Source: Patescibacteria group bacterium
GTDB lineage: Bacteria; Patescibacteriota; Patescibacteriia; UBA1558; GWA2-36-10
Reading direction: 5' to 3'
NCBI GenBank assembly: GCA_018819405.1
Contig: JAHJQF010000001.1
Coordinates: forward strand, 513,377-577,376
Length of the DNA stretch: 64,000 nt
The notes beneath the pieces were generated by a model that worked only from the letters and a program-made list of their open reading frames with translations, had not been told where the DNA came from and did no database searches. Every line of letters starts with the position of its first letter. Positions within the stretch are counted from its first letter, which is position 1. Below are positions 5,038 to 57,550 of this stretch, piece by piece. The position numbers and the translations under genes were made by a program.

Positions 5038-5134
5038 AAATTCACCAGATAACGTTATGGTGTTAAAGTATAATAAATCAGTGTTGATTTTACTAACAGG
5101 GAAAAAGTTATTTAATCATTAATTTCTAACGGGG
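5029..5134. repeat. palindromic intergenic element (TIR CCCCGTTAGAAATT / AATTTCTAACGGGG)
   Basis: 14-bp terminal inverted repeats around an AT-rich spacer that contains TATAAT. The left end supplies the stop of the 4633-5037 ORF. The right end abuts the GTG start of dut. Confidence 0.7.
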
Positions 5135-5816: not shown

Positions 5817-6494
5817 ATGTCAAAAGGAAAATTAATAGTCATAGAAGGCGGTGATGGCAGTGGTAAAACTACTCAATTTAATTTGCTCAAAGAAAAGCTA
5901 ATCAAAGATGGGCAGCTTATAGAAATCGTAGATTTTCCACGTTACGGACAGCCAGCGGCAGTCATGGTAGAAAAATACCTCAATGGTGATTTTGGCGCTG
6001 CCAAAGACGTAGGGGCTTATCGGGCTAGTATTTTTTATGCTATGGACAGATACGATGCTTCTTTTGATATGAAGAGATGGCTGGAAGATGGTAAAATTGT
6101 ACTAGCCAATCGCTATGCTACATCTAATATGGTCCATCAGGCCGGCAAGATCAAAGATCAAAAAGAGCGAGATATATTTTTGGATTGGTTGGATGAGTTG
6201 GAATTTAATATTTTTGCAATTCCTAGACCAGATGTAGTATTTTTTATGAATGTTTCAGCAGAGATTTCTCAAAATTTGGCACTTAGCAAAGATGGTCGTC
6301 ATGACAATCTCAAATCAAAAAATGATATACATGAGAATGATTTAAATCATTTACGTGATGCTCTTGAGGCTGGACAATATGTGGCCAAAAAATATAATTG
6401 GGAAATAATAGACTGTGATGATGGTACTGGACATATGAGAACAATAGATAGCATTCACGATGAAGTTTGTCAGAAGTTAAAAAAATATATATAG
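5817..6494 (+). CDS. tmk: thymidylate kinase
   Basis: LIVIEGGDGSGKTTQ P-loop and DRY motif. Confidence 0.9.
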   Translation: MSKGKLIVIEGGDGSGKTTQFNLLKEKLIKDGQLIEIVDFPRYGQPAAVMVEKYLNGDFGAAKDVGAYRASIFYAMDRYDASFDMKRWLEDGKIVLANRYATSNMVHQAGKIKDQKERDIFLDWLDELEFNIFAIPRPDVVFFMNVSAEISQNLALSKDGRHDNLKSKNDIHENDLNHLRDALEAGQYVAKKYNWEIIDCDDGTGHMRTIDSIHDEVCQKLKKYI

Positions 6495-42861: not shown

Positions 42862-44259
42862 ATGAATTTATCAACATTATTATTACTTTTGGTATATATA
42901 GTAAACGTAGGTCTTTTAGTATATGTTTTGTTTTCCAAAAATAAAAAAAAAGGCTGGCCGTTTTTTTGGATGTTGCTTTTGTTGATTTTATGGCAGAGTA
43001 CAGAATTATTTAGTATTATATATTTTGTTGACAAAGGAGAAACCCTTCTTCTTTTTGCTGTCAGAGCCGGGCTTTTGCCGACTCTTTATCTAGCGCCAGC
43101 TTTTTTGTGGCTGGTTTTTTCTTTGTTTGATAAATGGCAGACTTTCAAACCATGGCGCAAATTTTTGTATTTTCTACCGGCTATTATTATGTCGCCTTTT
43201 GCGTTTACAGATTTTAATACCAGTCAGGTAGTATTTGAGGATGAGAGGATATATTATGTTGGCGGGCCGATTTATTGGTTTTTTGCTGCCTACTTTATCA
43301 TATTGATGAGTTATGGCATGTATTTTTTGATCAAAAACAGAAAACAAGCCAAGGCTATAGTCAGGCGGCAAATAGATTATATTTTTATAGGGACTTTTTT
43401 GACAGCTGCTTGCGGATTGATATTTAACATATTATTGCCAATATTTGGTCTGAACAACTTATATTATCTGGGTGTAAATAGCACTATATTTTTTACAGCT
43501 ATTCTTACTTATGCACTTTTTAGGTATAGATTCTTTGATTTGTATATTTCTTTTTATCGTTTACTGATTGATTTTGTGCGTTTATTTTTTACAGGTTTGA
43601 TCTTTTATATTCTTTATATTTTGCTTTTTGATGTAGCAGATTTGGATTTTTCAGTGACTAGCAATGTCTTGTTGTTTTTGGTTATGATTGCTCTAGTTGG
43701 GCCATTTTTGTTTCGCTTGATAAATAAATTTTTTGTAGCTTATCTGGTCTATCCGGAAAATGACATCAAAAATTCAGAAAACAAAATTGCCGATATTTTG
43801 CGCTCCAGTCGTGATCTGGATGTTTTATTTTCACGTTTGGCTAGAGAGATAAGTAAAATAGTGGACTATCAGGACATTTATTTTTTTCTTTCCAAAAGAA
43901 AAAATGTCGATATGTTTTATCAGGTATTTCCGGTAGGCGAGAGACTGATGAGCAAGACAAATAGTGAGATGCTTTCTTATCTTGCTCGCAAACGAGAAGT
44001 TATAAATAAGGCAGAATTAGAATATATAGGCGCTGAGAAAAGCCTGCTGTCAGAATTGTCCGAAAAGCAAGTAGATCTGGTGTTGCCCATTTTTTATAAT
44101 CGTCAGCTTTTGGGAGCAATACTTATAAATAACAACAATGGTCTGGTATCTATCCAAAAAATACATTTTCTAAAACAGCTAAATAAATATCTAGACATTG
44201 CTATTGGTAGTCTGCTCTTGCATCAACAGGATATGGCGGAAAACAGTCCAAAAGTTTAA
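42862..44259 (+). CDS. 7TM membrane sensor protein (His-kinase-type 7TM N-domain + cytoplasmic domain)
   Basis: 465 aa. The N-terminal multi-TM region is similar to those of 44353, 45048 and the kinase at 51398. The C-terminal soluble domain may be GAF-like. Confidence 0.5.
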   Translation: MNLSTLLLLLVYIVNVGLLVYVLFSKNKKKGWPFFWMLLLLILWQSTELFSIIYFVDKGETLLLFAVRAGLLPTLYLAPAFLWLVFSLFDKWQTFKPWRKFLYFLPAIIMSPFAFTDFNTSQVVFEDERIYYVGGPIYWFFAAYFIILMSYGMYFLIKNRKQAKAIVRRQIDYIFIGTFLTAACGLIFNILLPIFGLNNLYYLGVNSTIFFTAILTYALFRYRFFDLYISFYRLLIDFVRLFFTGLIFYILYILLFDVADLDFSVTSNVLLFLVMIALVGPFLFRLINKFFVAYLVYPENDIKNSENKIADILRSSRDLDVLFSRLAREISKIVDYQDIYFFLSKRKNVDMFYQVFPVGERLMSKTNSEMLSYLARKREVINKAELEYIGAEKSLLSELSEKQVDLVLPIFYNRQLLGAILINNNNGLVSIQKIHFLKQLNKYLDIAIGSLLLHQQDMAENSPKV

Positions 44260-44352
44260 AGTTGAAAAGTATTAACATATAAAATTTGCGTAATTTTTAA
44301 TAATATGGTTATATAATTTGTTCAACTTTTAATTTTTTAACTTACTAACGGG

Positions 44353-45042
44353 ATGAGTATTCAAAACATTTTTCTCTTGATAGCCGCTATAGTCAATTTG
44401 CTTATGAGTATTGTTGTTTTTTCTCGCGGTATAAAAAACAAGGTAAACTTATATTTTGGCTTGCTGACTTTTTTTAATTTTTTATGGGCGCTTGGGCTGA
44501 TATTGGTGAATTTGGCTATTAGCTATGAGTTTACTAGATTTTTTGCCAGTTTTGTTTATCCGGTGGCCTTGATGGTAGTAGTTAGTCTTTATTATTTTAT
44601 TGTTTATTTCCCTTATAAAACTTTTGAATTGCCCAAGCTTTATAAAAATTTAATTACTTTTTTTGTGGGTCTAGTCACTTTATTTTGTATAGGAGCCTAT
44701 AAGATTTTTGTCCAAGATGTTTCTTTTAATCAAGGTGTTACGATTTTTTATGAAATGTGGAGCTATACATCTTATAGTATTTTGTTGGTTATATTAATGA
44801 TTCTTGGTATAGCTGTTTTATTTTCAAAGATTAAAAAAGCCGAGGGTATTTTTAAAGTGCAATTAAAATTAATTTTAATCGCGGTTATTATTGGTACAGC
44901 AGTTGGGAGTTATTCCAATTTATTTATGATGTATTTTTATAATTGTCAGTATAATCACCTAGGTCCTTTATTTACTTTATTTATCAACTTTGTAGTTTTT
45001 TATTTTATATTTTTTAGTCAAAAATCTAAACAGCTATCATAA
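44353..45042 (+). CDS. 7TM membrane protein, paralog A
   Basis: The N-terminus IAAIVNLLMSIVVFSRGIKNKVNLYFGLLTFFNFLWALGL is about 80% identical to the next gene over 50 aa. Confidence 0.5.
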   Translation: MSIQNIFLLIAAIVNLLMSIVVFSRGIKNKVNLYFGLLTFFNFLWALGLILVNLAISYEFTRFFASFVYPVALMVVVSLYYFIVYFPYKTFELPKLYKNLITFFVGLVTLFCIGAYKIFVQDVSFNQGVTIFYEMWSYTSYSILLVILMILGIAVLFSKIKKAEGIFKVQLKLILIAVIIGTAVGSYSNLFMMYFYNCQYNHLGPLFTLFINFVVFYFIFFSQKSKQLS

Positions 45043-45047
45043 ATACT

Positions 45048-45743
45048 ATGGTGATCACAACTTTACAATTACAAAATTTAACTTTGTTAATTGCGGCTAT
45101 CATAAATATAGTCATGAGTATATTTGTGTTGTCGCGCGGGCTTAAAAACAAAGTAAATTTATATTTTGGTCTGCTGACTTTTTTTAATTTTTTGTGGGCT
45201 TTGGGATTATTTTTGTCTAGGATTTTAGTGGATGATTTTACCGCTCAATTGCTTTATAGAACAGCGTATTTTGCCGCTATTTGGATAGCCGTATTTTTAT
45301 TTTATTTTACTCTAAATTTTCCTTATAAAATTAAGGATTTAAATAAGTATTATAGGTACTTTATTTGGTTTTTTTCGATATTAATATCTATACTAATTTA
45401 TACTAAATTTCATATAATTAGTTTTGAAAGAAGTGCAAACTTGGCAAATTGGTTTATGAATTATTATAAGCCATTTTACATAATTTATAGTATCTTCTTC
45501 TTTGTTTTAGTTTTGTTTGCAATTTATTTTTTAGTAGACAAGCTAGATAAAATAGAGGGATTTTTAAAGGATAAGATTAAGATATTATTATTTACCATAA
45601 TAATGGGCTTGATATTTGGCTCTTATTTCAATTTAATATTATGTTATTTCCAAAATTGGGATTATATATGGTTTGGGCCAATATTTACGGCTTTTATGAA
45701 TATTTATGTTTTTAGATTAATCAGCCTTTCCAAAGAAAGATAA
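45048..45743 (+). CDS. 7TM membrane protein, paralog B
   Basis: Tandem paralog of 44353. IAAIINIVMSIFVLSRGLKNKVNLYFGLLTFFNFLWALGL. Confidence 0.5.
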   Translation: MVITTLQLQNLTLLIAAIINIVMSIFVLSRGLKNKVNLYFGLLTFFNFLWALGLFLSRILVDDFTAQLLYRTAYFAAIWIAVFLFYFTLNFPYKIKDLNKYYRYFIWFFSILISILIYTKFHIISFERSANLANWFMNYYKPFYIIYSIFFFVLVLFAIYFLVDKLDKIEGFLKDKIKILLFTIIMGLIFGSYFNLILCYFQNWDYIWFGPIFTAFMNIYVFRLISLSKER

Positions 45744-45749
45744 TTTTTT

Positions 45750-46742
45750 ATGGCCAAAGCAAATAAAAAAATATATTTACTCTTAGCTGGCGGTACTTGT
45801 ATTTTGGATAAAGATAGCCGTATTTTTGCAATTAATGAAAAAAAAGACATTGATTATTGGTTTGATTTAATGCCAGAGCTGCGTATTTTGGCTGACATAG
45901 AAACAGTTTTGATTTCTAGCGAAGACCAAGTAGTAGACACTAGTGTCTGGCAGAAAATTGCCAAGAGTATTGTAGACAGAGAAAAATCAGCCGATGGTTT
46001 TGTAGTAGTGACAAAAATAGACCAACTTGTCAACACCTCTTTAGCAATTAATTTTTTGTTGCAGAATTTTAAAAAGTCTATTATTTTTACCAGTTCCCAA
46101 GTCAGCGGCAGTAGTTTTGTAGACAAAAAAGAAGTAATAAATAAACTAAAATCAAAACACGGTGGGTTAGGCCTAAGGACCAATTTGATAAACGCTATTC
46201 AAATTGCTTGTGAGCCTCTTCCACAGACAGCTGTTTTGTTTGGTACTAGGTTAATCGCTTCTACCAAAGCAATAGTAGATCTTCAGGATAGTATAAACAA
46301 TTTTATCAGTGTGGAAGGTAATTATTTAGCCAAAATTGATTTTGGTATAAATTTGAAATCGGGACTCAAATATTCCACCAAAAAAACAGAGATTTATCCC
46401 AGTATGTCAGCCAAAGTTTTGGCAATCTATGATATCCCAGGTATTGATTGGCAGTTTGAGCAAACTGATATGGCTAAATACGACGGGCTATTTATCAAAA
46501 TATCTCCCTTTCAAAACCTTGAAAATGTCAAAATAAAAAAAATAAATAATTGGAAAATACCGACAGTAATTTTTAATTCACGATATGTACCAGTTGTAAA
46601 AGGAGCGGTATCTGTATCAGGTTGTACTTTTAACTCAGCTCTTATCAAAACTATTTGGGCCTTGTCAAACAAAAAGAAACTACCAGATTTTGAAAATGTG
46701 ATGAAGCAAAATATAATTGGTGAGTTTAATTCACCCCGTTAA
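45750..46742 (+). CDS. asparaginase/glutaminase-family protein (putative)
   Basis: N-terminal IYLLLAGGTCIL resembles the TGGTIAG threonine motif of L-asparaginases. About 330 aa. The C-terminal SPR* is encoded by the palindromic element. Confidence 0.4.
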   Translation: MAKANKKIYLLLAGGTCILDKDSRIFAINEKKDIDYWFDLMPELRILADIETVLISSEDQVVDTSVWQKIAKSIVDREKSADGFVVVTKIDQLVNTSLAINFLLQNFKKSIIFTSSQVSGSSFVDKKEVINKLKSKHGGLGLRTNLINAIQIACEPLPQTAVLFGTRLIASTKAIVDLQDSINNFISVEGNYLAKIDFGINLKSGLKYSTKKTEIYPSMSAKVLAIYDIPGIDWQFEQTDMAKYDGLFIKISPFQNLENVKIKKINNWKIPTVIFNSRYVPVVKGAVSVSGCTFNSALIKTIWALSNKKKLPDFENVMKQNIIGEFNSPR

Positions 46743-46760
46743 ATAAATTTAAATCATAAT

Positions 46761-47018
46761 ATGAATCATTATGTATATATATTAAAAAGTAAGAAAGATA
46801 ATAACTTCTATGTAGGTTATACTAAAGATTTAAATTTAAGATTTAAGCAACACCAAGAAGCTAAAGTAGAATCAACTAAAAACAGAAGACCATTAAATTT
46901 GATATATTATGAATGTTGTTTAAATCAACAAGATGCTACTAAGAGAGAAAAATATTTAAAAACATATCTTGGTAGATATTATATCAAGAAAAGGCTTAAA
47001 TCTTATTTAACGGGGTAA
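46761..47018 (+). CDS. GIY-YIG nuclease family protein (85 aa)
   Basis: YVYILKS...NFYVGYTKDLNLRFKQH is a GIY-YIG motif. The gene is flanked by CCCCGTTAAAT (46736-46746) and ATTTAACGGGG (47005-47015), and its stop lies in the right repeat. Confidence 0.7.
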   Translation: MNHYVYILKSKKDNNFYVGYTKDLNLRFKQHQEAKVESTKNRRPLNLIYYECCLNQQDATKREKYLKTYLGRYYIKKRLKSYLTG

Positions 47019-47020
47019 AT

Positions 47021-47581
47021 ATGAAAATTTATTTTTATACCAATCAGGAGCTAAATAACACTGACGCCAAAGAAATTATCAATCACTTGAGGCGGGCAGA
47101 TATTGAGGTCATTAGTAGCTTGAGTAGCTCTTCAGATACGCAACTTGAAAGAGTGGATGCTTTTGTTTTTCAGGGACAAAAATTTGATACTAAGGCTGGA
47201 TATTTGACAGCTCTAGCTTTGGCGCAGAGCAAAGAGGTGCTTTGTCTTTTGCCTAGTGGTAGCAAAATTGATAGCTCGTTGGCCAGCCTGAGAGATAATA
47301 GGAATTTGGCCAAGCATTTATTGGTAGAATTTTATACTGATAGTGACTTGTCAGATAAACTGGAAAAATTTTTGACCAAATTGGACAAAAAAACTATCCG
47401 GGATTTGTTTAATATCAAATATACTTTGAGAGTATCGGGCAAGATAAATGATTATCTCAATTGGAAAGCCAGAGAAAAATCTGTCAAAAAAGCCGACTGG
47501 ATAAGGGACAACATACAGGATTTGATGAAAAATGATGAGAAATATCAGGATTTTTTAAAAAATAAATTTAAGGCTGGCTAA
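47021..47581 (+). CDS. hypothetical protein (possible nucleoside 2-deoxyribosyltransferase-like N-domain)
   Basis: ADIEVIS...DAFVFQGQKFDTKAGYLTALALAQSKEVLCLLP loosely resembles the NDT/Rcl fold. Low confidence. Confidence 0.3.
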   Translation: MKIYFYTNQELNNTDAKEIINHLRRADIEVISSLSSSSDTQLERVDAFVFQGQKFDTKAGYLTALALAQSKEVLCLLPSGSKIDSSLASLRDNRNLAKHLLVEFYTDSDLSDKLEKFLTKLDKKTIRDLFNIKYTLRVSGKINDYLNWKAREKSVKKADWIRDNIQDLMKNDEKYQDFLKNKFKAG

Positions 47582-47586
47582 AAAAG

Positions 47587-48387
47587 ATGACTAAAAATGA
47601 AGTCAAAAAAACTTTTTTTGAAGTACCGGAAGTGGTCAAAGATGCCTTGCCCTTTCGTATTGAATCCGGCAATGAGACTTTGGCCATAATTACTCACGGC
47701 TTTACCAGCTCGCCATATCATTTGCGTCATTTGGCTGAGTATTTGGCCGAGCGCGGTATAGACGTGGAGACTATTCTTTTGGCCGGCCATGGATCTTCCG
47801 AGCAGGCTTTGGAAAAAACCAGTCATCATGATTGGCTTGATTCGGTAGAAAGTGTCTTATTGAAAAATCTGGATAAATACAAAAAAATCTATATGATAGG
47901 TCATTCTTTGGGAGCCAATATTTCAATTTGTTTGTCGGTCAAATATCCTCAGATAAAAGGCATTGTATCTTTGGGAGCATCTATATATTTGCGCGGTGAA
48001 TTTTGGCAAAGATTTTTTTTGCCCTGGTACAAGTTTTTTGGTATAAAAAAATTGAAAAAAATGTGGCTCAAGCCAGAAGAAGCTGAGCTCATAATAAAAA
48101 GGGGAGGGAGAACCAATATCCCTATAAAATCAGTTGATCAGCTTTATAAGTTTATTGATACCCATACAAAAAAAGAAATAGCGCAGGCTACAGCGCCGAT
48201 ACTCATCGTTCATTCTCGGTACGACAAGGTGTCTCACCCTTATAGCTCTCAGTTTTTGTTTGAAAATATTGCCAGTCAGGACAAGGAGTTGTTTATTTTG
48301 GACAAAAGCGACCATGGTCTTCTCCAGAGTACTAGACGAGATTTTTTGTTCAAAAAAATAGTAAATTTTATAGGTAATCATAATTAA
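47587..48387 (+). CDS. alpha/beta hydrolase (esterase/lipase)
   Basis: GHSLGA nucleophile elbow. The HG..S..L fold runs over 266 aa. Confidence 0.7.
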   Translation: MTKNEVKKTFFEVPEVVKDALPFRIESGNETLAIITHGFTSSPYHLRHLAEYLAERGIDVETILLAGHGSSEQALEKTSHHDWLDSVESVLLKNLDKYKKIYMIGHSLGANISICLSVKYPQIKGIVSLGASIYLRGEFWQRFFLPWYKFFGIKKLKKMWLKPEEAELIIKRGGRTNIPIKSVDQLYKFIDTHTKKEIAQATAPILIVHSRYDKVSHPYSSQFLFENIASQDKELFILDKSDHGLLQSTRRDFLFKKIVNFIGNHN

Positions 48388-48435
48388 TATTTATTTTTAA
48401 AAAAGCGTTTTTTGTGGTAAAATATAATAACAAAT

Positions 48436-50133
48436 ATGACTTTAGCTGTTAGATTCAAGCAGATAGTGGATAAATTTGGCAGGCATACAGCCTTGGCCTA
48501 TTTAGTTGATGAACAATACAAAAAAATAAGCTATCGGGAGCTAGATAGACGTCGTTTATATCAGGCAAATAATTGGAAAAGTTTTGGCTGGCAAAAAGGT
48601 GAAAAGGTAGCTCTGATGCTGGATAATTCTCCAGAATGGGTAATCAGTGATTTAGCGGCAGCGACTTTGGGTCTTATAGTTGTGCCAATTCATACTACCT
48701 TTAATGGTGAATATATTAAAAGGGTCATGGAGCACTCGGGCGCCAAGTATTTAATTATAAATCGTGAGTATTTTGATAAACACAAAAATACAATATTATC
48801 TTTTGACTTAAAAAAAATAATTATAGTAGGTGGTAGTCTAGATTTAAAGGATGAAAAAATTATTGGCTGGCCAAGACTGGATTTACAGAAAAAATTGGAG
48901 GATATCTTGATAAATGTGGACGAGGATGATGTGCACACTATAATATATACATCTGGTACTACGGGTGATCCAAAAGGCGTAATGTTGACTCATAAAAATT
49001 TGATAGTAAATGCAGAGTCAGCCAAAAGGAGTGTCAATATTACCTATAAAGATCGATTTTTTTCTTTTTTACCCCTTTCTCACGCTTTTGAGCGCACAGC
49101 TGGTTATTATTGTCCAATTTTTACTGGATCAAGCATTTATTTTGCCAGAAGCAGTAAAAGCATAGTAGATGATATCAAAAAAGCTAGGCCGACTATGATC
49201 AACAGTGTGCCCCGTATTTTTGAAAGGATTTATGGCAAGGTTTTTGACAATGTAGAATCAGGTAGTAATTTCAAAAAAAAGTTGTTTTTCAAATCTCTCA
49301 AGCTATCGGTTTTGAAAAGAAAAAATGAACTGGATTTTTTAAGCAAATTATCTTTATTTATTTTAGATTTATTGGTATTAAAAAAAGTCAGGGCGATATT
49401 GGGGGGTAGACTTAGATTGGCAATATCAGGCGGCGCTTCTTTAGATATAAAAATTTTGAGATTTTTTGAAAATTTGGGCATTGATATTATAGAAGGATAT
49501 GGTATGACCGAGACTTCACCTGTGATTGCTGTAAATAAAGTAAATAATAGCCGACCTGGTACTGTAGGCCAAGCTTTAGATTGTAATGAGATAGTCGTGG
49601 CTCAAAATAAGGAAATTTTGATAAAAGGTGAAAATGTAATGTTGGGATATTATGCTAATGATGGAGCAACTAGTGAAATTATAGACAAAGACAAGTGGCT
49701 GCATACAGGAGATTTTGGTTTCTTAGATAAAGAAGGTTTTTTGACCATAATAGGTAGAGCCAAGGATGTTATAGTGCTTTCTACCGGTAAAAATATTTTT
49801 CCAGAGACTATAGAAAATACATTAAATGAAAGTAGATTTATTGTTCAAAGTATGGTTTACGGAGACAATCAAAAACATATATCTGCTTTGATAGTCCCAA
49901 ATTTTGAACAATTAAAAAAATGGTGTGAAGAAAATAAAATAGAATTTGATTTAAACGATCAAAAAGTACAAGGCTTTTATAGAGATAAGATAACTAGTCG
50001 ATTGGCTCATTTTGCCCAAGTAGAACAAATAGGTGATTTTAAATTATTGGAAGAGGAATTTAGCCAAGAAAATGGAATGTTGACTCCTACTTTGAAATTA
50101 AAGAGGTATAAGATTAAAAAAATATATTTATAA
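48436..50133 (+). CDS. long-chain fatty acid--CoA ligase (AMP-binding)
   Basis: IIYTSGTTGDPKGV AMP-binding motif I and the GYGMTE motif. Confidence 0.85.
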   Translation: MTLAVRFKQIVDKFGRHTALAYLVDEQYKKISYRELDRRRLYQANNWKSFGWQKGEKVALMLDNSPEWVISDLAAATLGLIVVPIHTTFNGEYIKRVMEHSGAKYLIINREYFDKHKNTILSFDLKKIIIVGGSLDLKDEKIIGWPRLDLQKKLEDILINVDEDDVHTIIYTSGTTGDPKGVMLTHKNLIVNAESAKRSVNITYKDRFFSFLPLSHAFERTAGYYCPIFTGSSIYFARSSKSIVDDIKKARPTMINSVPRIFERIYGKVFDNVESGSNFKKKLFFKSLKLSVLKRKNELDFLSKLSLFILDLLVLKKVRAILGGRLRLAISGGASLDIKILRFFENLGIDIIEGYGMTETSPVIAVNKVNNSRPGTVGQALDCNEIVVAQNKEILIKGENVMLGYYANDGATSEIIDKDKWLHTGDFGFLDKEGFLTIIGRAKDVIVLSTGKNIFPETIENTLNESRFIVQSMVYGDNQKHISALIVPNFEQLKKWCEENKIEFDLNDQKVQGFYRDKITSRLAHFAQVEQIGDFKLLEEEFSQENGMLTPTLKLKRYKIKKIYL

Positions 50134-50134
50134 G

Positions 50135-50734
50135 ATGGGATATTATATTTTGAAATATTTATTCTATCCATTTATCAAACTGTTCTGGTTAGATAAAATT
50201 AGTGGTCTTAATAATATACCTAAAAAAGGCTCTTTTATAATAGTAGCTAACCATAAAAGTTATTTGGATTTTATATTACTTTTTACTTTTATACCAAGAA
50301 GAATATCTTTTTTAGCAGCTGAAGTTTTTTTTAAAAGTAAACTATGGCACCCAATAATGAAAATCACGGGGCAAATAAAAGTTGATAGGGAATCCCCTAA
50401 TAAAGGGGAAGTGTATAAAAATGTTGATAGGTTATTTAAAAAAGGAGGGGTTTTAGGTATATTCCCAGAAGGAACTAGGTCTAGAGACGGCAAATTACAC
50501 AAGGGTTATAATGGAGCTGTTAAATTTTCTTTTAAGTATCAAGTGCCTATCATTCCTATTGGTCTAATAAATACCTTTGATGCTTTTCCTCCGCATAGCA
50601 AAAAGCCGAGGTTGGTTAGATGTATAATTAATATAGGTGAGTCGTTTTATTTAGATAGTACAGATTATGATATAGAAACTAGCAGATTAATGAACAAAAT
50701 AGCAAAACTTTCAGGTGAGGTATATGAAGATTGA
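50135..50734 (+). CDS. plsC: 1-acyl-sn-glycerol-3-phosphate acyltransferase
   Basis: NHKSYLD (HX4D) and the FPEGTRS motif. Confidence 0.75.
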   Translation: MGYYILKYLFYPFIKLFWLDKISGLNNIPKKGSFIIVANHKSYLDFILLFTFIPRRISFLAAEVFFKSKLWHPIMKITGQIKVDRESPNKGEVYKNVDRLFKKGGVLGIFPEGTRSRDGKLHKGYNGAVKFSFKYQVPIIPIGLINTFDAFPPHSKKPRLVRCIINIGESFYLDSTDYDIETSRLMNKIAKLSGEVYED

Positions 50735-51398
50735 TAATAAGGACATTTTAGTATTTTTTGATATAGATAATACAATAGTGGATGGTTATACACAGAAATA
50801 TTTTATTCAATTTTTGATGAATAAAGGTAAGATAAGTAAAAAATATTTATTATTTTTAGCAATTTGGTTTATATTATATAAATTAAAAGTTATAAAAAAT
50901 ACAAACAGAGCTATAAAATTTTATGTAGGTTTATTGAATGGTCTAAGCGAACAAGAACTACGGAACATTGTTGATGATTTTTTCCAAAGTAAAATAAAAA
51001 ATCATATTTTTTTAGGGGCATTAAGAGATGTTAAATATCATTTGAAGAATGGACACAATGTTGTATTTGTTTCTATGAGTTTAAAACCAATAGTAGAAAA
51101 AATAGCGGAGTATTTAAAAGTTAATTATGTTGTAGCCACTAATCTAGAGATATTAAATGGGGTTTATACTGGAAAAATTTTAGGGTATATAATAGAAGGA
51201 GATTTTCGTCTAAATGCCATAAAAGAATACATAAAAATGTTCGACAGTGATAAATTAATAACACATTTTTATACAGATCATTATTCAGATATACCAATTT
51301 TGAGATTAATTGATAGTCCGCATGTTGTTAATCCAGATAATATTTTATATAGAGAGGCAATAAAAAATAACTGGGAAATATTAAAATATAAGAAATAA
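50715..51398 (+). CDS. HAD-superfamily hydrolase (subfamily IB-like)
   Basis: FFDIDNTIVDG gives the DxDxT motif I. Confidence 0.6.
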   Translation: MRYMKIDNKDILVFFDIDNTIVDGYTQKYFIQFLMNKGKISKKYLLFLAIWFILYKLKVIKNTNRAIKFYVGLLNGLSEQELRNIVDDFFQSKIKNHIFLGALRDVKYHLKNGHNVVFVSMSLKPIVEKIAEYLKVNYVVATNLEILNGVYTGKILGYIIEGDFRLNAIKEYIKMFDSDKLITHFYTDHYSDIPILRLIDSPHVVNPDNILYREAIKNNWEILKYKK

Positions 51399-54205
51399 TG
51401 AATGCTTTTGCTTTTTCAAGTTTAGTTACTAGTATTTGGAGCTTTGTATTAGCTAGTTTTGTTTTTATCAAGAATAAGAATAGATCAAGTATCTTATGGG
51501 CTAGAACCAGTGTGTCTATCGGATTTTGGAGCATGGGTTTGTTTGGTGTAACATTTTTTAAAAATTATCAATATGCCTATTTGTCACAAATAATTCTAGA
51601 TATAGGTGCTATATTTTTGCCAGTGTTTTTTGTAGATTTTGTAGCAAATTTAACAGAGGAGGGGAATAAATACAAGAAATTCATTAGATTTAATTATATA
51701 TTTGCAATATTTTTATCATTATTTAGCTTGACCCCATATTTTAAGACAGGTTTAAAGTCAGTATTTAATTTTGAGTATTGGATAAATCCAGGACCATTAT
51801 ATTTTGTATTTCCAGTATTTTTTATGGTATTAGCAATATTTTCTGTATTTTTGTTAATTAGCAATCGGAAAATGTCTTTAGGTCTTAAAAGGCAACAAAT
51901 AAAGTATGTCTTATACTCGGCTTTTATTGGTTTTGGTGGTGGAGCCTTCAACTTCCTGCCACAATTTTCACATATATATCCCATAGGTAATTATTTAGTA
52001 GGATTTTATGCTTTAGCGATTACTTATGCAATAATTAAGTATCGTTTAATGAATATCCGTCTAATCCTTACCCGTAGTATATTGTACGGTGTCTTAGTAG
52101 CTGCTGTAGCTGCTTTTTTTGCCCTATCGGTATTGGTAGTAGGTGAGGCTGTTGGGGGCAATACCAAAACTAGCAAAATAATTACCTATATTATTACTTC
52201 ATTTATAGTGGTTGTATTTTTGGATCCAGTTAAGCGCACTTGGGCCAAAGTGACAGATAAAATATTTTATAAAGACAAAATAGATTATCAGGATGCTTTG
52301 CAGCAGGCTAGTACTATATTGGCTAGAGAAATTGACTTGCAAAAATTATTGCAAAAATTATCTAAACTCTTGACCATTAGGCTCAAAATAAAAAATATAG
52401 CTGTATTAATTCCAGAAAATGGCATTTTTTATTCAGTAAAGCCTGTGTTGTCTGAAAAAAATAATCCAGGAATTAGTGTTTCGCAGAATTTTGTTGCTTA
52501 TCTTAATAATAATAAAGAGTTGTGTATAATAGAGGAAATTATCCGCGGTAGTAAGGAAGGAGAAATCAGCCAACAAACTCAAGATTTTATAAAAGAAGCA
52601 GAAAACTTAAAAATAGAAGTAGTGGTCCCTATAGTAGAGTCAGAAAATATTACTGCTATATTTCTTATCAGCGCCAAGCAATCGGGTGACCTTTACAATG
52701 ATGATGATGTCAATTTTTTCAAAGTACTCACTCCTCAGGTGGCCAATGCCATAGAAAAGTCCAAGCTTTATGAGGAAGTGGAGCAGTTCAATAGAGAATT
52801 GCAGCAAAAAGTAGAGGATAGGACCAAAGATCTCAAGCAGGTCAATCTGGCGTTGGAGGATAGAAACAAATTTTTGACTACCATGCAAGTAGTTATTAAT
52901 ATGGTTAGTCGCACTCTAGATCTTAAAAAAGTCAATCAAATGATCGCCGATTCTATTGCCAAAGAGCTTGGTTATGTTGGCGGTATTTTGAGTTTTGTAG
53001 ACAGCGAAAAAAAAGTTTTGCGTGTAGGGGCTATTACGTCCAATGAAAATGCTCAAAAAGCTTTTCGGATGCTTGCTCAAGAGCCACGTGAATATGAAAC
53101 AAACCTAGAAAATAATTATAATTTGTCAGCCCAAACATTTCTCAATGGAAAGATAAATTTTTCCGATAAGATGTCAGACTTTTTGTCCCCGCCGGTAGAA
53201 AAAGAGGCAATAGACAAAATTCAAGAAATTTTGGGTATCAAGACAGTGGTTGGTGTGCCTATATTTTCTGAAGCCAAGATAATCGGTGTGATTCAATTTT
53301 ATCTGCCAGTCAAACAGGATAAAATATCAGCTCTTGATATAGAAATTATGACAGCACTTACCAACCAAGTAGGTATAGTATCTCGCAACTTGAAATTGTA
53401 CAAAAATCTTCAAAAAGCCAATATGGATTTGCAGGATGCTAATATCCGTTTGCGCGAGCTGGACAAAGCCAAAAGTGAATTTTTGTCCATTGCTTCTCAT
53501 CAGCTACGCACTCCTATATCAGCTATCAAAGGGTATTTGTCTATGATGATAGACGGTGATTTTGGTAAAATACCACCAAGCATCTCTGCTGTGATAGCCA
53601 ATCTTTTTGAGAGTTCCGCCAGGCTGGCCAGGCTGATAAATATATTTTTGAACGTATCACGCATTGAATCAGGACGTCTCAAGCTGGAGAAAAAACCCAT
53701 CCAGATAAATGATATGATAGAAAGTGTGATGATGGAACTTGTCAATCAGGCCAATCAAAAAGGCGTAAAACTCAAATACAAAAAAGCCAAAAAAGCTCCG
53801 CCACTTATATTGGCTGATGCCGACAAGCTGCGCGAAGTAGTACTCAACTTGGTAGACAATGCTATCAAATATACTCCAGAGGGCAAGATTGATGTGATGG
53901 TAGAATATGACAAGGCCAATCTAAAGTTTTTGGTCAAAGACACTGGTATTGGTATAGATCCAATGGAGGCCAAGACTTTGTTTAGAAAGTTTGTCCGAGG
54001 TAGTGGTGTAGCCCAGATTCACACCGGCGGATCCGGTTTAGGATTATTTATTGCTCAAAAGATTATCAAAGAACACGGCGGTAATATCTGGGTAGAGAGT
54101 GAAGGCAAGGGTAAAGGCTCAGTATTTCAATTTGAAATACCAATATATGACGGACATGAAGTACCGGAGTATAAAAAAGAGGCAGAGGATAGTAAGAGTA
54201 AATAA
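51398..54205 (+). CDS. sensor histidine kinase with 7TM N-domain, GAF domains, HisKA and HATPase_c
   Basis: H-box LSIASHQLRTPISAIKGY. N, G1 (DTGIGI) and G2 (GGSGLGL) boxes. N-terminal 7TM like the paralogs at 42862-45743. Confidence 0.8.
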   Translation: MNAFAFSSLVTSIWSFVLASFVFIKNKNRSSILWARTSVSIGFWSMGLFGVTFFKNYQYAYLSQIILDIGAIFLPVFFVDFVANLTEEGNKYKKFIRFNYIFAIFLSLFSLTPYFKTGLKSVFNFEYWINPGPLYFVFPVFFMVLAIFSVFLLISNRKMSLGLKRQQIKYVLYSAFIGFGGGAFNFLPQFSHIYPIGNYLVGFYALAITYAIIKYRLMNIRLILTRSILYGVLVAAVAAFFALSVLVVGEAVGGNTKTSKIITYIITSFIVVVFLDPVKRTWAKVTDKIFYKDKIDYQDALQQASTILAREIDLQKLLQKLSKLLTIRLKIKNIAVLIPENGIFYSVKPVLSEKNNPGISVSQNFVAYLNNNKELCIIEEIIRGSKEGEISQQTQDFIKEAENLKIEVVVPIVESENITAIFLISAKQSGDLYNDDDVNFFKVLTPQVANAIEKSKLYEEVEQFNRELQQKVEDRTKDLKQVNLALEDRNKFLTTMQVVINMVSRTLDLKKVNQMIADSIAKELGYVGGILSFVDSEKKVLRVGAITSNENAQKAFRMLAQEPREYETNLENNYNLSAQTFLNGKINFSDKMSDFLSPPVEKEAIDKIQEILGIKTVVGVPIFSEAKIIGVIQFYLPVKQDKISALDIEIMTALTNQVGIVSRNLKLYKNLQKANMDLQDANIRLRELDKAKSEFLSIASHQLRTPISAIKGYLSMMIDGDFGKIPPSISAVIANLFESSARLARLINIFLNVSRIESGRLKLEKKPIQINDMIESVMMELVNQANQKGVKLKYKKAKKAPPLILADADKLREVVLNLVDNAIKYTPEGKIDVMVEYDKANLKFLVKDTGIGIDPMEAKTLFRKFVRGSGVAQIHTGGSGLGLFIAQKIIKEHGGNIWVESEGKGKGSVFQFEIPIYDGHEVPEYKKEAEDSKSK

Positions 54206-54217
54206 TATTAGTTTTAT

Positions 54218-54251
54218 TACCGCCGCGGCAAAGCCGCGGCGGTTTTTTTAT
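54218..54251 (+). terminator. rho-independent terminator
   Basis: accgccgcgg caaa gccgcggcggt followed by ttttttt. Confidence 0.85.
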
Positions 54252-54259
54252 TATTTCTA

Positions 54260-54306
54260 TTGACAAGTTATTTCTATTGCTATAAACATAGCGACGGCTC
54301 TAGAAA
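54260..54306 (+). promoter_or_regulatory. promoter plus palindromic operator-like motif upstream of the radical-SAM gene
   Basis: TTGACA, a 15-bp spacer, TATAAA. GCTATAAACATAGC-GACGGCTCTAGAAA shares a 20-plus-nt core with 60948-60975. Confidence 0.5.
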
Positions 54307-54368
54307 ATGTCCTCTCACAATTTTGTCTTTTTGGTCTAGAAACCTTGGTGCTTAGAAAGGAGCATATT

Positions 54369-55388
54369 ATGTTTTGCTGGCTTACCGTTAACAGATCTTG
54401 TAACATGCGTTGCCATTGGTGCTACGCTAAAGAAAAGATTGATAGTTCTTCTAGTATGACTCTAGATGTTCTGGAGTCAATATTGAGTGTGGTGGCTAAT
54501 AAACCAATAAACGTTTTTACACTTATTGGTGGAGAGCCAACCATACACAAAGATCTATCGTCTTTCATCAAGCGCCTCAAGCCATCACGAGTAATGATGG
54601 TAAGTAATGGTTTGAGATTGGCAAATATGTCATATTTGTTCAATCTCAAGGAGAGTGGTTTGGATGTAGTAGCTCTTTCTTTGAAAGGGGCAAATCAAGC
54701 GGAGTACCTAAAAAACACTGGTGTGCCAGGATTGGATAAGGTAGAACGGGCGGTAGCTAATATGAATGCTTTGGGCATGCAGTACAATATTTCGGTTACG
54801 TTTTCAGATAGTGTCATGGATTCGTTGCCGATGATATTGGATTGGATGCAATCATCCAATGCTCAAAGTATGTCTATAAACTATTGCCGACCTTATGTAG
54901 TCGACGGTAGAATCAGTGCACAGGGGGTTCCTAGCCCCGTAGAGATGGCAGAAAGGACAGTGCAGAGTTACGAGCTGATCAGGAAAAGCGGAGTACGCTG
55001 TACCTTTTCTTTCTTGTTGCCGCTGTGTTTGTTGCCGCGGGAGTTTATTGACTTGCTAGTCTCAAGGAATGAACTCTCAACAATCTGTCAACTTCAGAAG
55101 CATACAGGTATCATTTTTGAACCAGATGGTAGTCTAATCCCTTGTCATCATTTGTTTGACTACAAGCTCGGGAAGCTTGGAGAGGATTTTACTACCGCTG
55201 CGGAATTTGATACCTTTATGGAAGGAGGTAAAATATCAAGGTTTTATCGTAAGACAGGCGGTTTTCCACACGAAAAATGTTTGTCTTGCGATTTGCGAAC
55301 AAGGTGTGGTGGAGGCTGCTTGGTACAACACCTGCAGTATTCTCCTAGTGAATTAATACCCCAAGCTTTTGAAAGGATGGAGAAATGA
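54369..55388 (+). CDS. radical SAM / SPASM-domain peptide-modifying enzyme
   Basis: CNMRCHWC (CxxxCxxC) at the N-terminus. C-terminal SPASM CLSCDLRTRCGGGC. Start at ATG 54369, preceded by AAAGGAG. Confidence 0.8.
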   Translation: MFCWLTVNRSCNMRCHWCYAKEKIDSSSSMTLDVLESILSVVANKPINVFTLIGGEPTIHKDLSSFIKRLKPSRVMMVSNGLRLANMSYLFNLKESGLDVVALSLKGANQAEYLKNTGVPGLDKVERAVANMNALGMQYNISVTFSDSVMDSLPMILDWMQSSNAQSMSINYCRPYVVDGRISAQGVPSPVEMAERTVQSYELIRKSGVRCTFSFLLPLCLLPREFIDLLVSRNELSTICQLQKHTGIIFEPDGSLIPCHHLFDYKLGKLGEDFTTAAEFDTFMEGGKISRFYRKTGGFPHEKCLSCDLRTRCGGGCLVQHLQYSPSELIPQAFERMEK

Positions 55389-55546
55389 ACAACAACCAGT
55401 CTGATCTTCGGCAGATCGTCGATGATATGCTGGACAAGCGTATCGAGACGGGAGAAGATCTCAGTGGCTTCAGCATCCGTGGTGCTGTGGCAGGAGAGAT
55501 GATCTGTGGCGACTGCGGAGATGGCGATTGCGAATGTAGCTCGTAG
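55385..55546 (+). CDS. 53-aa Cys-rich peptide, putative RiPP precursor (not in the ORF track)
   Basis: ATGA overlap with the radical-SAM stop. Translation MNNNQSDLRQIVDDMLDKRIETGEDLSGFSIRGAVAGEMICGDCGDGDCECSS. About 52% GC. Hairpin after the stop. Confidence 0.5.
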   Translation: MNNNQSDLRQIVDDMLDKRIETGEDLSGFSIRGAVAGEMICGDCGDGDCECSS

Positions 55547-55601
55547 AGCTCTTCGTGATTTTACGGGGGTATGTCTGTAGCATGCCCCCACAATAAAGTT
55601 T

Positions 55602-56120
55602 ATGAAATTTATATATAACAAAGAAATTGACCAGCAGTGTCATGATAGATTGTCAGCTCATGATAGTATTTTTGGTGAAGTCAAAAAAACTGGCAGCTAC
55701 CCAGTGACCGAAGAGATTGTCAAACAGTTTAATGATAAATGGACAGAAGAAATTGATAAATATTTTGTAGCTGGTATATATAAAATATTTAAAAAATCAA
55801 TTCCAGAAAATTTTACAGTATATATAAATTCCACGCCTTATTCTATGGATATAGAGGACGGAATATCTATTTCAGCCTCATCTATCAATGTAATGATAAT
55901 GCTTGTTTGCCACGAGGCCAATCACTATATGTTTAGAAAGAGTGATTATAAAAATAAATATTTTCCAAATAAAGATATAGAAGAGGCTAAAGAGATTTTT
56001 ACAGTAGTAAATAATATTTATTTCAAAGATATTATGGAAAAAGAGGACAAGGCTTGGAGTAAATTTTTTGAAGAAAGAGAACAATTTTTACAACGATGGA
56101 AAGATCGCTTTGCCGGGTAA
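55602..56120 (+). CDS. HExxH-motif protein (putative zinc metallopeptidase)
   Basis: 172 aa containing VCHEANHYMF. Sits downstream of the peptide. Confidence 0.45.
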   Translation: MKFIYNKEIDQQCHDRLSAHDSIFGEVKKTGSYPVTEEIVKQFNDKWTEEIDKYFVAGIYKIFKKSIPENFTVYINSTPYSMDIEDGISISASSINVMIMLVCHEANHYMFRKSDYKNKYFPNKDIEEAKEIFTVVNNIYFKDIMEKEDKAWSKFFEEREQFLQRWKDRFAG

Positions 56121-56291
56121 ATTCCAGCCCTCGGCAACTCTGTCCCACGCATCTTTCGCTGCCAATCGTGATTTTTACGCCAGAAAGGAGGCTCAGTACA
56201 TCTGATTTTCCTAGGGGGCAGACGTATTTTGCATCTTGCTGATATGTCTGCCTCCACACTTTATATATAATATAGTTTTATATATTGTAGT

Positions 56292-56320
56292 TTGACAACA
56301 ATTTGAGGATGCCTTATAAT
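56292..56320 (+). promoter_or_regulatory. consensus sigma70 promoter of the proBCA leader
   Basis: TTGACA, exactly 17 bp, then TATAAT. Confidence 0.65.
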
Positions 56321-56331
56321 TTTTGATAGTT

Positions 56332-56473
56332 ATGAAAAAATTATTCAGCAACAACCAAGCCCCGCATCCTCGCGAAATAGATTTTAGCGCCCGCTAAGGG
56401 ATGTTGTTGTTTTGAATATATTAAGTATAAATTTTATTAAGTAATAACTCTTGGCAGCGGCTAAGAGTTTTTT
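56332..56473 (+). promoter_or_regulatory. proB leader: 21-codon uORF plus an intrinsic terminator 6 nt before the proB ATG (attenuator-like)
   Basis: uORF MKKLFSNNQAPHPREIDFSAR at 56332-56397. Hairpin ctcttggcagcggctaagag plus tttttt at 56448-56473. Confidence 0.4.
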
Positions 56474-56479
56474 GTGAAT

Positions 56480-57550
56480 ATGAAAGAAATAATAGTAGTA
56501 AAAGTTGGTACAAATACCCTGACCGCCAATGGCTCAAATCTAAATAATGATTTGATAGCTAATTTGGTAAAACAACTGGCAAAACTCCATGAACAGGGTT
56601 ACCAGGTTGTTTTGGTAACTTCAGGGGCAGTAGCGGCTGGCAAGGAGGCACTGTATTTATCAAATGGTGATAATACGATTGTAAAGAGGCAGGTTTATGC
56701 TTCGGTTGGTCAGGCTCGGTTGATGCACAAGTATGAGAATTTTTTTGCCGAGCACGGGCTCAATATCGGCCAGGCACTACTGACTCATGATGATTTTTGT
56801 CATAGAGCCCGATATGATAATGCCTTACAAACTCTTCATGGATTATTAGACAGTGGAATCATCCCTGTTATTAATGAAAATGATGTAGTAACTATTAATG
56901 AATTATCATTTGGGGACAACGATGTCTTGGCCGCTACCACAGCAATAGCCATAGGGGCTAGCAAACTAATTTTTTTGACAAATCAAGAAGGTGTGATGAC
57001 AGATAATCCAAATAAAAATTCAGACGCCAGATTGATAGACAAGGTAGAGGATGCTAAAGAAATTTTTTCTGTAATATCGGATGGTCTGCCTTCTTCTGGC
57101 GGTATAGGAGGCATGTTTTCCAAAGTCAATGCTGCCAGGATTGCAACCAGTGCGGGAGTAGCCACCTGGGTTGCCAGTGGTCTGAGACCGGCCAATATAA
57201 GTGATATTGTACAGGGTAAAAAAATAGGTACATATTTTGTACCAAAAAAAACTACTTTGACAGCTAAGTCTAGATGGATTCTTTGTGCCAAGAATGCTTC
57301 CACAGGTGTTTATGTAGATGCCGGAGCAGTCAAAGCTTTGACTGACAGAAAAAGTCTTTTGATGGTAGGTATTCATAAAATTAAAGGATTTTTTGAAGCC
57401 AAGCAGATAATAGAAGTAATAGATGATACTGATCGTATAGTGGGATATGGGGTAGTAAATTATGACTCAGAAAGCTTAAAAGCAGCCTTGGACAACCCCA
57501 GATCTTTGGATAAAGAAATAATACATGCAGATAATTTTAGACTAATATGA
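56480..57550 (+). CDS. proB: glutamate 5-kinase
   Basis: VVKVGTN...LVTSGAVAAG amino-acid-kinase fold plus a C-terminal PUA domain. Confidence 0.9.
   Translation: MKEIIVVKVGTNTLTANGSNLNNDLIANLVKQLAKLHEQGYQVVLVTSGAVAAGKEALYLSNGDNTIVKRQVYASVGQARLMHKYENFFAEHGLNIGQALLTHDDFCHRARYDNALQTLHGLLDSGIIPVINENDVVTINELSFGDNDVLAATTAIAIGASKLIFLTNQEGVMTDNPNKNSDARLIDKVEDAKEIFSVISDGLPSSGGIGGMFSKVNAARIATSAGVATWVASGLRPANISDIVQGKKIGTYFVPKKTTLTAKSRWILCAKNASTGVYVDAGAVKALTDRKSLLMVGIHKIKGFFEAKQIIEVIDDTDRIVGYGVVNYDSESLKAALDNPRSLDKEIIHADNFRLI

Follow-up and report, generated by a model that had tools for sequence, protein, structure and literature searches.

Does a radical S-adenosylmethionine (rSAM) enzyme that is encoded together with a short Cys-rich peptide and an HExxH protein make a modified peptide in a bacterium with a reduced genome, and, if so, to which family does this product belong? 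The question is raised by a trio of open reading frames (ORFs) on one strand, at 54369-56120 of the window, i.e., the whole stretch of 64,000 nucleotides (nt) of Patescibacteria group bacterium DNA analyzed here. The trio encodes an rSAM/SPASM enzyme, a 53-residue peptide and a 172-residue HExxH protein (GenBank accessions MBU1202968-70) and forms a cassette of about 1.9 kb. An earlier note had called the locus similar to those of ribosomally synthesized peptides with post-translational modifications (RiPPs) and had assigned it to the SCIFF, ranthipeptide or sactipeptide type. Comparative genomics bears out the first claim: the short ORF is conserved, the enzyme is no sulfatase or cofactor maturase, and distantly related rSAM enzymes are also followed by Cys-rich peptides. 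The family assignment is not supported, since every family model stays far below its cutoff and no RiPP recognition element (RRE) was found. Our reading, to which we give a probability of about 0.7, is that the trio represents a minimal, rSAM-dependent three-gene RiPP cassette of an uncharacterized family.

The components of the cassette are:
54369..55388, + strand, putative rSAM/SPASM peptide maturase of 339 residues without an N-terminal RRE, recognized by Pfam and NCBIfam domains, invariant Cys residues and full-length alignments
55385..55546, + strand, predicted precursor peptide gene, 53 residues; the ATG overlaps the stop codon of the rSAM gene (ATGA), and the leader spans approximately residues 1-39
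55502..55543, + strand, predicted core ICGDCGDGDCECSS, residues 40-53; [IV]-C-(x)-[DE]-C, an acidic/Gly linker and C-x-x-end are conserved in the peptide alignment
55602..56120, + strand, zincin-like HExxH protein of 172 residues; H104, E105, H108, E127, K130, E131, D149, and R159 are conserved, there is no signal peptide, and the gene is AT-rich

A conserved short gene follows the rSAM gene

The TGA stop codon of the rSAM gene overlaps the ATG of the 53-codon ORF at 55385-55546, as the earlier note had described, and the translation is identical to the one quoted there. The peptide is not unannotated, as had been supposed, since it has a GenBank entry as hypothetical protein KKH39_02935 (MBU1202969.1). 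Its gene occurs once, and no other such ORF is present in the window.

Among 5.8 billion protein clusters, we found about 21 close relatives of the rSAM enzyme (52-75% identity), and 13 distinct close loci were recovered. Counts for the spacer hairpin and the HExxH linkage given below refer to the 12 loci that bear the peptide, i.e., 11 besides the window. The named relatives are all Patescibacteria, Paceibacterota or Nomurabacteria, and the rest come from metagenomes. An ORF of 45-61 codons overlaps or directly follows the rSAM gene in 12 of the 13 loci, and these 12 also keep the Cys positions, a pattern that had been named beforehand as a test of the RiPP idea. In the alignment, the leaders share an N-terminal (L)V(D)xxLxx[KR]R motif and LxG[FY], and the cores share [IV]-C-(G/N)-[DE]-C, five to eight Asp, Glu or Gly residues and a Cys that lies two to three residues before the C-terminus. 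Two details were corrected: three Cys positions are conserved rather than four, and the AG junction thought to resemble a double-Gly site is not conserved in the homologues. Pairwise dN/dS values of the peptide gene lie between 0.10 and 0.59 for pairs with unsaturated dS. Judged from these alignments, the peptide gene is under purifying selection and is a real, conserved protein-coding gene tied to the rSAM gene. An antisense ORF of 125 residues (55244-55621) was rejected as a compositional by-product; it is not maintained in several relatives.

The close family occurs in 3 of 185,579 GTDB species representatives, and the flanking genes are unlike in every close locus. A distribution this patchy and accessory is more in keeping with a natural-product cassette than with a housekeeping role.

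The rSAM/SPASM enzyme is a peptide maturase candidate outside curated families

Both domains predicted for the product of the gene at 54369-55388 were recovered. Pfam Radical_SAM (PF04055) matches with an E-value of 4.8e-19 and 69.6 bits (gathering threshold 29.5), and the CxxxCxxC cluster motif corresponds to C11-x3-C15-x2-C18, which is kept in all 19 homologues except for C11 of the N-terminally truncated P0019. The GenBank model MBU1202968.1 has 327 residues and starts 12 codons too late, thereby cutting off C11; the ATG at 54369 is backed by the homologue alignment and by a Shine-Dalgarno sequence. The NCBIfam SPASM model TIGR04085 covers residues 240-324 with 40.2 bits (cutoff 27). Compared with the SPASM motif used as criterion (CX9-15GX4C, gap, CX2CX5CX3C, gap, C), the enzyme contains C240-x13-G254-x4-C259 and C304-x2-C307-x5-C313-x3-C317, where GGG between C313 and C317 makes up the CGGGC reported before. 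Seven Cys residues of this region, C220, C240, C259, C304, C307, C313, and C317, are invariant across the 19 homologues.

The rSAM family profile aligns over its full length with CteB (residues 5-327 versus 101-425 of CteB), and likewise with SuiB (from SuiB residue 136) and with the anaerobic sulfatase-maturating enzyme (anSME). A Foldseek search with the AlphaFold2 model (AF2; mean confidence score pLDDT 76) returned anSMEcpe as closest match (E 3.9e-12, TM-score 0.64), with BlsE, SuiB, and SkfB nearly equal. This raises the question of whether the enzyme could be an anSME-like maturase of another protein, with the small ORF being incidental or unexpressed. anSMEcpe is the closest solved structure to our model, has a similar length, is likewise a SPASM enzyme without RRE and acts on Cys or Ser in a peptide segment. 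We take the likeness, which comes from a model, to reflect a shared RRE-less SPASM architecture and not membership in the sulfatase-maturase family: SuiB, BlsE, and SkfB score almost as well, the anSME model TIGR03942 gives 54.3 bits against a cutoff of 349.45, and no sulfatase gene lies in the flanks. Moreover, the peptide has no C/S-x-P-x-R motif, and the cassette is predicted to encode a dedicated, co-translated peptide substrate instead, from an ORF that is conserved, coupled and under purifying selection in all close loci but one. We therefore regard an anSME-like function as scarcely credible.

Cofactor maturases were approached no more closely. PqqE (TIGR02109) scores 42.5 bits against a cutoff of 381, MftC (TIGR03962) is also far below its cutoff, and the archaeal MoaA model reaches 77 bits against 325. 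Maturases for pyrroloquinoline quinone (PQQ) or mycofactocin are recognized by a score above cutoff, a PqqD or MftB partner and a peptide with Glu...Tyr or a C-terminal Val-Tyr; here an RRE partner is lacking, the peptide ends in CECSS, and neither a PqqD nor an MftB gene was found in the flanks. Clustering with sulfatase or cofactor maturases, which had been named as the result that would overturn the RiPP idea, is thus not what we see (54 of 349 bits for anSME, 42 of 381 for PqqE, no partner genes).

Two other origins were rejected. PADLOC reported for the rSAM enzyme a generic N-terminal similarity to pVip (residues 7-112) only, and nothing for the peptide or the HExxH protein, which does not support a defense system. 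A phage origin was discarded because IMG/VR holds no real homologues of the rSAM or HExxH proteins, only partial rSAM cores.

The gene order recurs in a wider clade

Genome and metagenome scans revealed full-length rSAM relatives with 25-33% identity in Saccharibacteria, Pumilibacter muris, Ruminococcaceae and unclassified bacteria. None of these distant enzymes reaches a curated family cutoff. In ten distinct distant loci, a small ORF with a C-terminal Cys-rich segment lies directly behind the rSAM gene; examples are ...YCGSQGNCQRC, ...CDCACVCECDCDC..., ...HCDCDCTAAGNCNCSRCDW, ...CDCACVCECDCDCHCVCECDDCDCYC..., and ...DCSGHCNCGGTTHCRC. A hidden Markov model (HMM) of the 12 close peptides detects the distant peptides no better than shuffled controls, so that only the architecture is common to both groups. 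An N-terminal 'xxLLxxLKK' leader motif, noticed by eye, is not claimed, as it has no statistical support. Relatives of about 25% identity in Streptomyces, Gemmataceae and Acidobacteria have no adjacent Cys peptide and were placed outside the system.

One member of the wider family comes from a cultured Firmicute, Pumilibacter muris CLA-AA-M08 (locus L020, 3016-5240). Here, a HELAH protein is encoded upstream of the rSAM gene, and the 82-residue peptide has a metallothionein-like tail (CDCACVCECDCDCHCVCECDDCDCYC); P. muris is a possible experimental model. In another locus (L119, 3001-4759), the gene for a 30%-identical rSAM enzyme (P0022) is followed by a second radical-SAM gene and no peptide, an order unlike that of the rest of the clade.

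Metallothionein-like sequences among the distant homologues, e.g., CDCACVCECDCDCHC, also bear on whether the modified peptide could be an intracellular cofactor or metal-binding peptide, similar to PQQ and mycofactocin or to a metallothionein-like Cys/Asp chelator, rather than a secreted product. The core is rich in C-x-C, Asp and Gly, as is usual for metal ligands, and no exporter, signal or double-Gly motif was detected. PqqE and MftC are SPASM enzymes, PqqE aligns over its full length, and the PQQ and mycofactocin pathways each include a peptidase partner. Against this stand the very sporadic accessory distribution (3 of 185,579 species representatives), the lack of a co-conserved dependent enzyme in flanks that differ everywhere, and the low PqqE and MftC scores without a PqqD or MftB partner. 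Taken together, we consider a cofactor or chelator improbable.

A zincin-like protein accompanies the enzyme and the peptide

The 172-residue protein encoded at 55602-56120 contains the HEANH motif described before (C103-H-E-A-N-H108) and has no Pfam or NCBIfam assignment. C103-H104-E105-x-x-H108, E127, and E131 are invariant in 26 close relatives, which fit the pattern HExxH-x18-E. The AF2 model (pLDDT 95.9) shows a zincin/gluzincin-like fold, so that the protein combines HExxH and a downstream Glu on a zincin fold, as gluzincins of clan MA do. An exhaustive profile search of 1.84 billion proteins delimited a superfamily of 70 clusters at 50% identity. In 49 full-length members, H104, K130, and E131 are invariant and E105, H108, T134, D149, and R159 nearly so. 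Scans of these 49 members gave scattered weak matches, mostly to peptidase families (SprT-like, WLM, DUF5700, YydH/LiaK), among them NF058609 (YydH/LiaK) in 2 of the 49 (E 0.0012) and TIGR04267, the HExxH family dependent on alpha-ketoglutarate (aKG), in 1 of the 49 (E 0.0039). The window protein itself matches neither NF058609 nor, at E <= 1, TIGR04267, and is thus not assigned by these models to the YydH/LiaK or aKG-HExxH (IPR026337) families. MCM3, which provided the only matches of the HExxH profile in a PDB sequence search, was dismissed as spurious.

In 11 of 12 close loci, the gene after the peptide gene encodes the HExxH protein. The twelfth, L117, has instead a 236-residue HEILH protein of the same superfamily, which is homologous to the HELMH proteins of 254-282 residues encoded after the peptide in Saccharibacteria-type loci. 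When the close HExxH family was set against the Saccharibacteria type by hhalign, the probability was 99.8% (E 4.9e-29, 199 columns) with a broadened profile; before broadening, the match had been weak (E 0.008). Most of the distant loci likewise encode an HExxH protein near the rSAM and peptide genes, and several of these proteins are members of the superfamily. The HExxH partner of L064 joins it with 91% probability and that of L022 is ambiguous; the partners of L021 and L020 show only motif-level similarity. Because the triad of rSAM enzyme, Cys peptide and HExxH protein recurs across rSAM enzymes that are only about 26% identical, the comparison argues for a functional link of the HExxH protein to the system. 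The earlier note had suggested a leader peptidase or an immunity protein; candidate roles are a leader peptidase, an immunity peptidase or an oxidative tailoring enzyme.

The last of these roles would leave the RiPP system as such in place: the HExxH protein would be an Fe(II)/aKG-dependent oxygenase that hydroxylates the core, e.g., to beta-hydroxy-Asp. Such enzymes adopt a zincin-like fold and were initially taken for metallopeptidases in annotation; in RiPPs, they hydroxylate Asp, His, Phe, Gln, and Pro (PMC12636437, PMC13060819). ChlH, BpmH, PflC, and PesO partner with or are fused to rSAM enzymes, as in the ChlBH triceptide, BpmH/BipH biphenomycin, PflC/PosC, and PesO systems. The core of our peptide is rich in Asp, the invariant K130 and R159 could bind the carboxylate of the keto acid, and the single weak TIGR04267 match points in the same direction. 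In contrast, the window protein lacks any TIGR04267 or IPR026337 match, is, with 172 residues, half as large as the solved aKG-HExxH domain (342 residues) and is nearer to the M1/thermolysin fold. ChlB forms cyclophanes on aromatic residues, whereas our core has no aromatics. Copies of the HExxH gene without a peptide are hard to reconcile with a tailoring enzyme. As bacteria of the candidate phyla radiation (CPR) are mostly anaerobic fermenters, the O2 requirement would also speak against an oxygenase, by inference only. We judge this role to be rather unlikely and prefer a metallopeptidase within the RiPP cassette.

Points that weigh against the RiPP cassette

Several results weigh against the reading of the trio as one RiPP system or against its placement beside known ones. 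On the enzyme side, the rSAM protein approaches no equivalog-level NCBIfam model and reaches no curated family model. The sactipeptide maturases StsB (NF045574; 51.3 bits, cutoff 625, N-terminal half only) and SkfB (TIGR04403) and the ranthipeptide maturase PapB (NF047865; 49.2 bits, cutoff 340) do not include it, and the SCIFF maturase TIGR03974 is not among the 25 matches listed. Because the alignment begins past the RRE of CteB and SuiB and no PqqD-like domain (PF05402) was found by Pfam at E <= 1 in the three cassette proteins, the enzyme appears to be devoid of a detectable RRE. The fused or discrete RRE of ranthipeptide and sactipeptide synthases is thus missing; the rSAM motif already begins at residue 11. 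The final Cys of the canonical SPASM motif is absent after C317, and one auxiliary cluster may for this reason have an open or non-Cys ligand. On the peptide side, no recognizable leader-cleavage motif was found, and the NCBIfam precursor models (SCIFF and other Cys-rich peptides) match neither the window peptide at E <= 1 nor 10 related and distant peptides at E <= 10. The spacing between Cys and acidic residues, e.g., the CX3D of PapA, is not conserved in the peptide alignment, so that the cross-link pattern cannot be predicted.

The remaining points concern the third gene, which is separated from the peptide gene by a spacer of 55 nt in the window:
55565..55589, + strand, GC-rich hairpin between the peptide and HExxH genes; minimum free energy (MFE) -18.9 kcal/mol, z -2.98; the outer stem reaches the HExxH start codon

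A strong GC hairpin is present in this spacer in the window and in 11 of 11 related loci. At least 7 relatives have a T-run after the hairpin, and about 6 of these also have a TATAAT-like box just upstream of the HExxH ATG. The window spacer contains the hairpin without T-run, -10 box or Shine-Dalgarno sequence. In the relatives that have both a T-run and such a box, the spacer looks like a terminator followed by a separate HExxH promoter, possibly giving a leaderless mRNA. Furthermore, the GC content at third codon positions (GC3) of the HExxH gene is below, and often far below, that of the adjacent rSAM and peptide genes in nearly every locus, whatever the GC content of the host. In the window, GC3 is 0.42 for the rSAM gene, 0.61 for the peptide gene and 0.25 for the HExxH gene; the corresponding values in the L116 locus (51.5% GC) are 0.67, 0.76, and 0.39. 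This contrast is based on the window, L001, L003, L004, L006, L018, L019, L051, and L116, and is small or partly reversed in L001, L018, and L051. Separate mobility and expression-linked codon usage are candidate explanations. Finally, four HExxH orthologues on long contigs (Komeilibacteria, Nomurabacteria, others) were confirmed to be orphans without rSAM and peptide genes, and four further ones are likely orphans since their contigs carry no listed rSAM gene. In a neighbor-joining tree, orphans are interspersed with linked copies. Small ORFs beside the orphan genes encode hydrophobic membrane peptides and not Cys/Asp peptides.

These observations could mean that the system consists of the rSAM enzyme and the peptide only, with the HExxH gene being an independent neighbor that has a general cellular role and next to which the bicistron tends to lie. 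Such independence would account for the terminator-like hairpin and T-run in at least 7 of 11 related loci and the -10-like box in about 6, for HExxH GC3 values of 0.15-0.39 beside values up to 0.67 (rSAM) and 0.76 (peptide) in the same locus, for the orphans with their unrelated neighbors, and for the L047 locus, where the peptide gene is deleted and the HExxH frame retained. It would not account for a linkage to members of the same superfamily that holds across rSAM enzymes only about 26% identical, that outlives the swap to a different superfamily member in L117, and that persists while the other flanking genes differ in every locus. We consider an independent HExxH gene distinctly unlikely. 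The orphan pattern is as expected of an immunity gene that outlives its producer genes, and it appears equally compatible with a second, general role.

Proposed mechanism and relation to known systems

From gene structure, domains, conservation and co-occurrence, we infer the following course, in which the substrate relationship, the thioether chemistry, the role of the HExxH protein and any export or biological activity of the product are predictions. A sigma-70-like promoter downstream of the terminator of the preceding histidine-kinase gene would drive a bicistronic rSAM-peptide mRNA, and the ATGA overlap would couple peptide synthesis to enzyme synthesis. One radical-SAM [4Fe-4S] cluster is predicted for the enzyme, along with a SPASM domain that would house auxiliary clusters. 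As there is no RRE, the enzyme would bind the conserved leader directly, via an amphipathic LVDxxLxKR helix and LxGF/Y, and apply 5'-deoxyadenosyl radical chemistry to the C-terminal 14-residue Cys/Asp/Gly-rich core. The likeliest outcome would be two to four intramolecular thioether bridges of the ranthipeptide or sactipeptide kind, joining the conserved Cys residues to carbons of neighboring Asp/Glu or other residues. The cytoplasmic zincin-like HExxH protein would act on the same peptide, most likely as a metallopeptidase, whether for cutting off the leader or for breaking down the peptide in self-protection.

Our preference for Cys thioethers as the specific modification is tentative, and we place it somewhat below even odds. 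They are favored because Cys and the flanking acids are the only strictly conserved core residues, because CteB, the nearest characterized full-length homologue acting on dedicated Cys-rich peptides, forms thioethers, and because PapB, an rSAM/SPASM enzyme, links Cys sulfur to the beta and gamma carbons of Asp and Glu (PMC9413430), the residues that dominate the core of our peptide.

The ranthipeptide systems PapB/PapA (freyrasin) and CteB/CteA (SCIFF, thermocellin) likewise place an rSAM/SPASM enzyme beside a short precursor with a C-terminal Cys-rich core, and CteB aligns end to end with our rSAM profile. The cassette differs from them in that their family models and the SCIFF precursor models are not matched, CX3D repeats are missing, the N-terminal RRE of CteB (alignment from CteB residue 101) and the final SPASM Cys are absent, the partner gene encodes a small HExxH protein, and an exporter gene is lacking. 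The epipeptide system YydFGHIJ, comprising the rSAM epimerase YydG, the peptide YydF, the HExxH metalloprotease YydH/LiaK and an ABC (ATP-binding cassette) exporter, follows the same gene logic of rSAM enzyme, peptide of about 50 residues and HExxH metalloprotease. YydG, however, matches our rSAM profile over the rSAM core only (E ~1e-5), our HExxH protein is soluble and has 172 residues, an ABC transporter is missing, and the richness of our peptide in Cys and Asp suggests cross-linking and not epimerization. The cassette thus appears to work like a ranthipeptide or sactipeptide cassette, yet it scores below the HMM cutoffs of these families, matches none of their precursor models and lacks their RRE; it is best described as an uncharacterized family among the rSAM/SPASM-modified RiPPs. 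Unusual traits of this family are the absence of RRE and exporter, the Asp/Gly/Cys core, the new zincin-like partner superfamily and the near-restriction of the close family to CPR bacteria.

A bolder proposal, which we consider unlikely as a whole, is that the cassette represents an undescribed, mostly CPR-borne RiPP class. In this class, a SPASM enzyme without RRE and exporter would introduce a new cross-link or radical modification into an Asp/Gly/Cys core, an obligatory, separately transcribed and mobile zincin-like HExxH partner would serve as immunity protease or for oxidative tailoring, and the product would mediate the interaction of ultra-small episymbionts, including Saccharibacteria, with hosts or competitors.

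The main catalogues of RiPP-modifying rSAM enzymes were built via an RRE or a nearby ABC transporter (PMC10288494), and surveys of biosynthetic gene clusters list few or none for CPR genomes (PMC11613949, PMC12153355). Because it has neither RRE nor transporter, the cassette falls into the blind spot of the rSAM-RiPP catalogues. Its small size, about 1.9 kb and three genes, makes heterologous testing easy. If our reading is right, the cassette would give the first experimentally accessible natural product from reduced-genome episymbionts, a case of leader recognition without an RRE and a function for a new zincin-like protein family. A further rSAM-peptide pair would be no great surprise to a specialist, and a product that is just another thioether peptide would be an incremental gain.

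Genomic setting of the cassette

Upstream, the cassette borders on the gene for a 935-residue 7TM-GAF histidine kinase (7TM, seven-transmembrane); on its 3' side lie proB, proC, and proA. The flanking genes include neither a transporter nor any other biosynthetic gene. The elements upstream of the rSAM gene are:
54219..54243, + strand, intrinsic terminator of the upstream histidine-kinase gene; 11-bp stem with 10 GC pairs, then a T-run; 5' boundary of the cassette
54260..54286, + strand, promoter-like TTGACA-15 nt-TATAAA, read from the sequence; about 83 nt upstream of the rSAM start codon
54357..54362, + strand, Shine-Dalgarno AAGGAG, 6 nt before the rSAM ATG

Three claims about this region held in part. 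The cassette was said to have its own promoter: the TTGACA/TATAAA pair is present, and most related loci have a TTGACA/-10 pair at 85-117 nt before the rSAM start, but a consensus scan does not call the window version, owing to its 15-nt spacer. Canonical ribosome-binding sites precede the rSAM and peptide genes and are missing before the HExxH gene; at the Shine-Dalgarno position of the rSAM gene, AGAAAGGAG is kept in homologous loci. The raised GC content applies to the rSAM (0.42) and peptide (0.53) genes, whereas the HExxH gene (0.30) is below the window mean of 0.36. A search of 53500-57000 against Rfam gave no structured RNA above noise, and direct repeats flanking the cassette were not found in the window.

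Direct repeats were seen only in the Nomurabacteria locus L049 (Candidatus Nomurabacteria GW2011_GWA1_36_15), where copies of about 121 nt at 2769-2889, 4962-5082, and 6071-6191 bracket the cassette and one downstream ORF. The very same repeat-bracketed segment reappears, circularly permuted, as a 2.2-kb metagenome contig (L050); tandem duplication, excision as a circle or misassembly brought about by the repeats are candidate explanations. In L001 (7870-9450) and L018 (6447-7091), the cassette has an IS200-type Y1 transposase and/or a DUF6922 and AbiEii gene pair as neighbors. AbiEii is annotated as the toxin of a type IV toxin-antitoxin system, and these neighbors suggest a variable genomic island. 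In the degenerate locus L047 (1310-2860), a deletion has taken away the rSAM gene's 3' end together with the complete peptide gene and has joined the rSAM in frame to the HExxH protein, resulting in a 516-residue ORF (protein P0005).

Further upstream in the window, the region 42862-54205 encodes three tandem paralogous 7TM (HisKA_7TM) membrane proteins of 229-465 residues. They sit a few genes upstream of the 935-residue 7TM-GAF-HisKA-HATPase kinase, which itself directly precedes the cassette. A scan of ten proteins from this region turned up no response regulator.

Downstream of the cassette, a perfect sigma-70 promoter (TTGACA-17-TATAAT, 12/12) within 56292-56480 precedes a structured RNA of about 150 nt (MFE -38.2, z -2.8) that has no Rfam match and contains a 21-codon ORF, MKKLFSNNQAPHPREIDFSAR. 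An intrinsic terminator at 56446-56469 stops 4 nt before the proB start, making this region a candidate attenuator or leader for proB-proC-proA.

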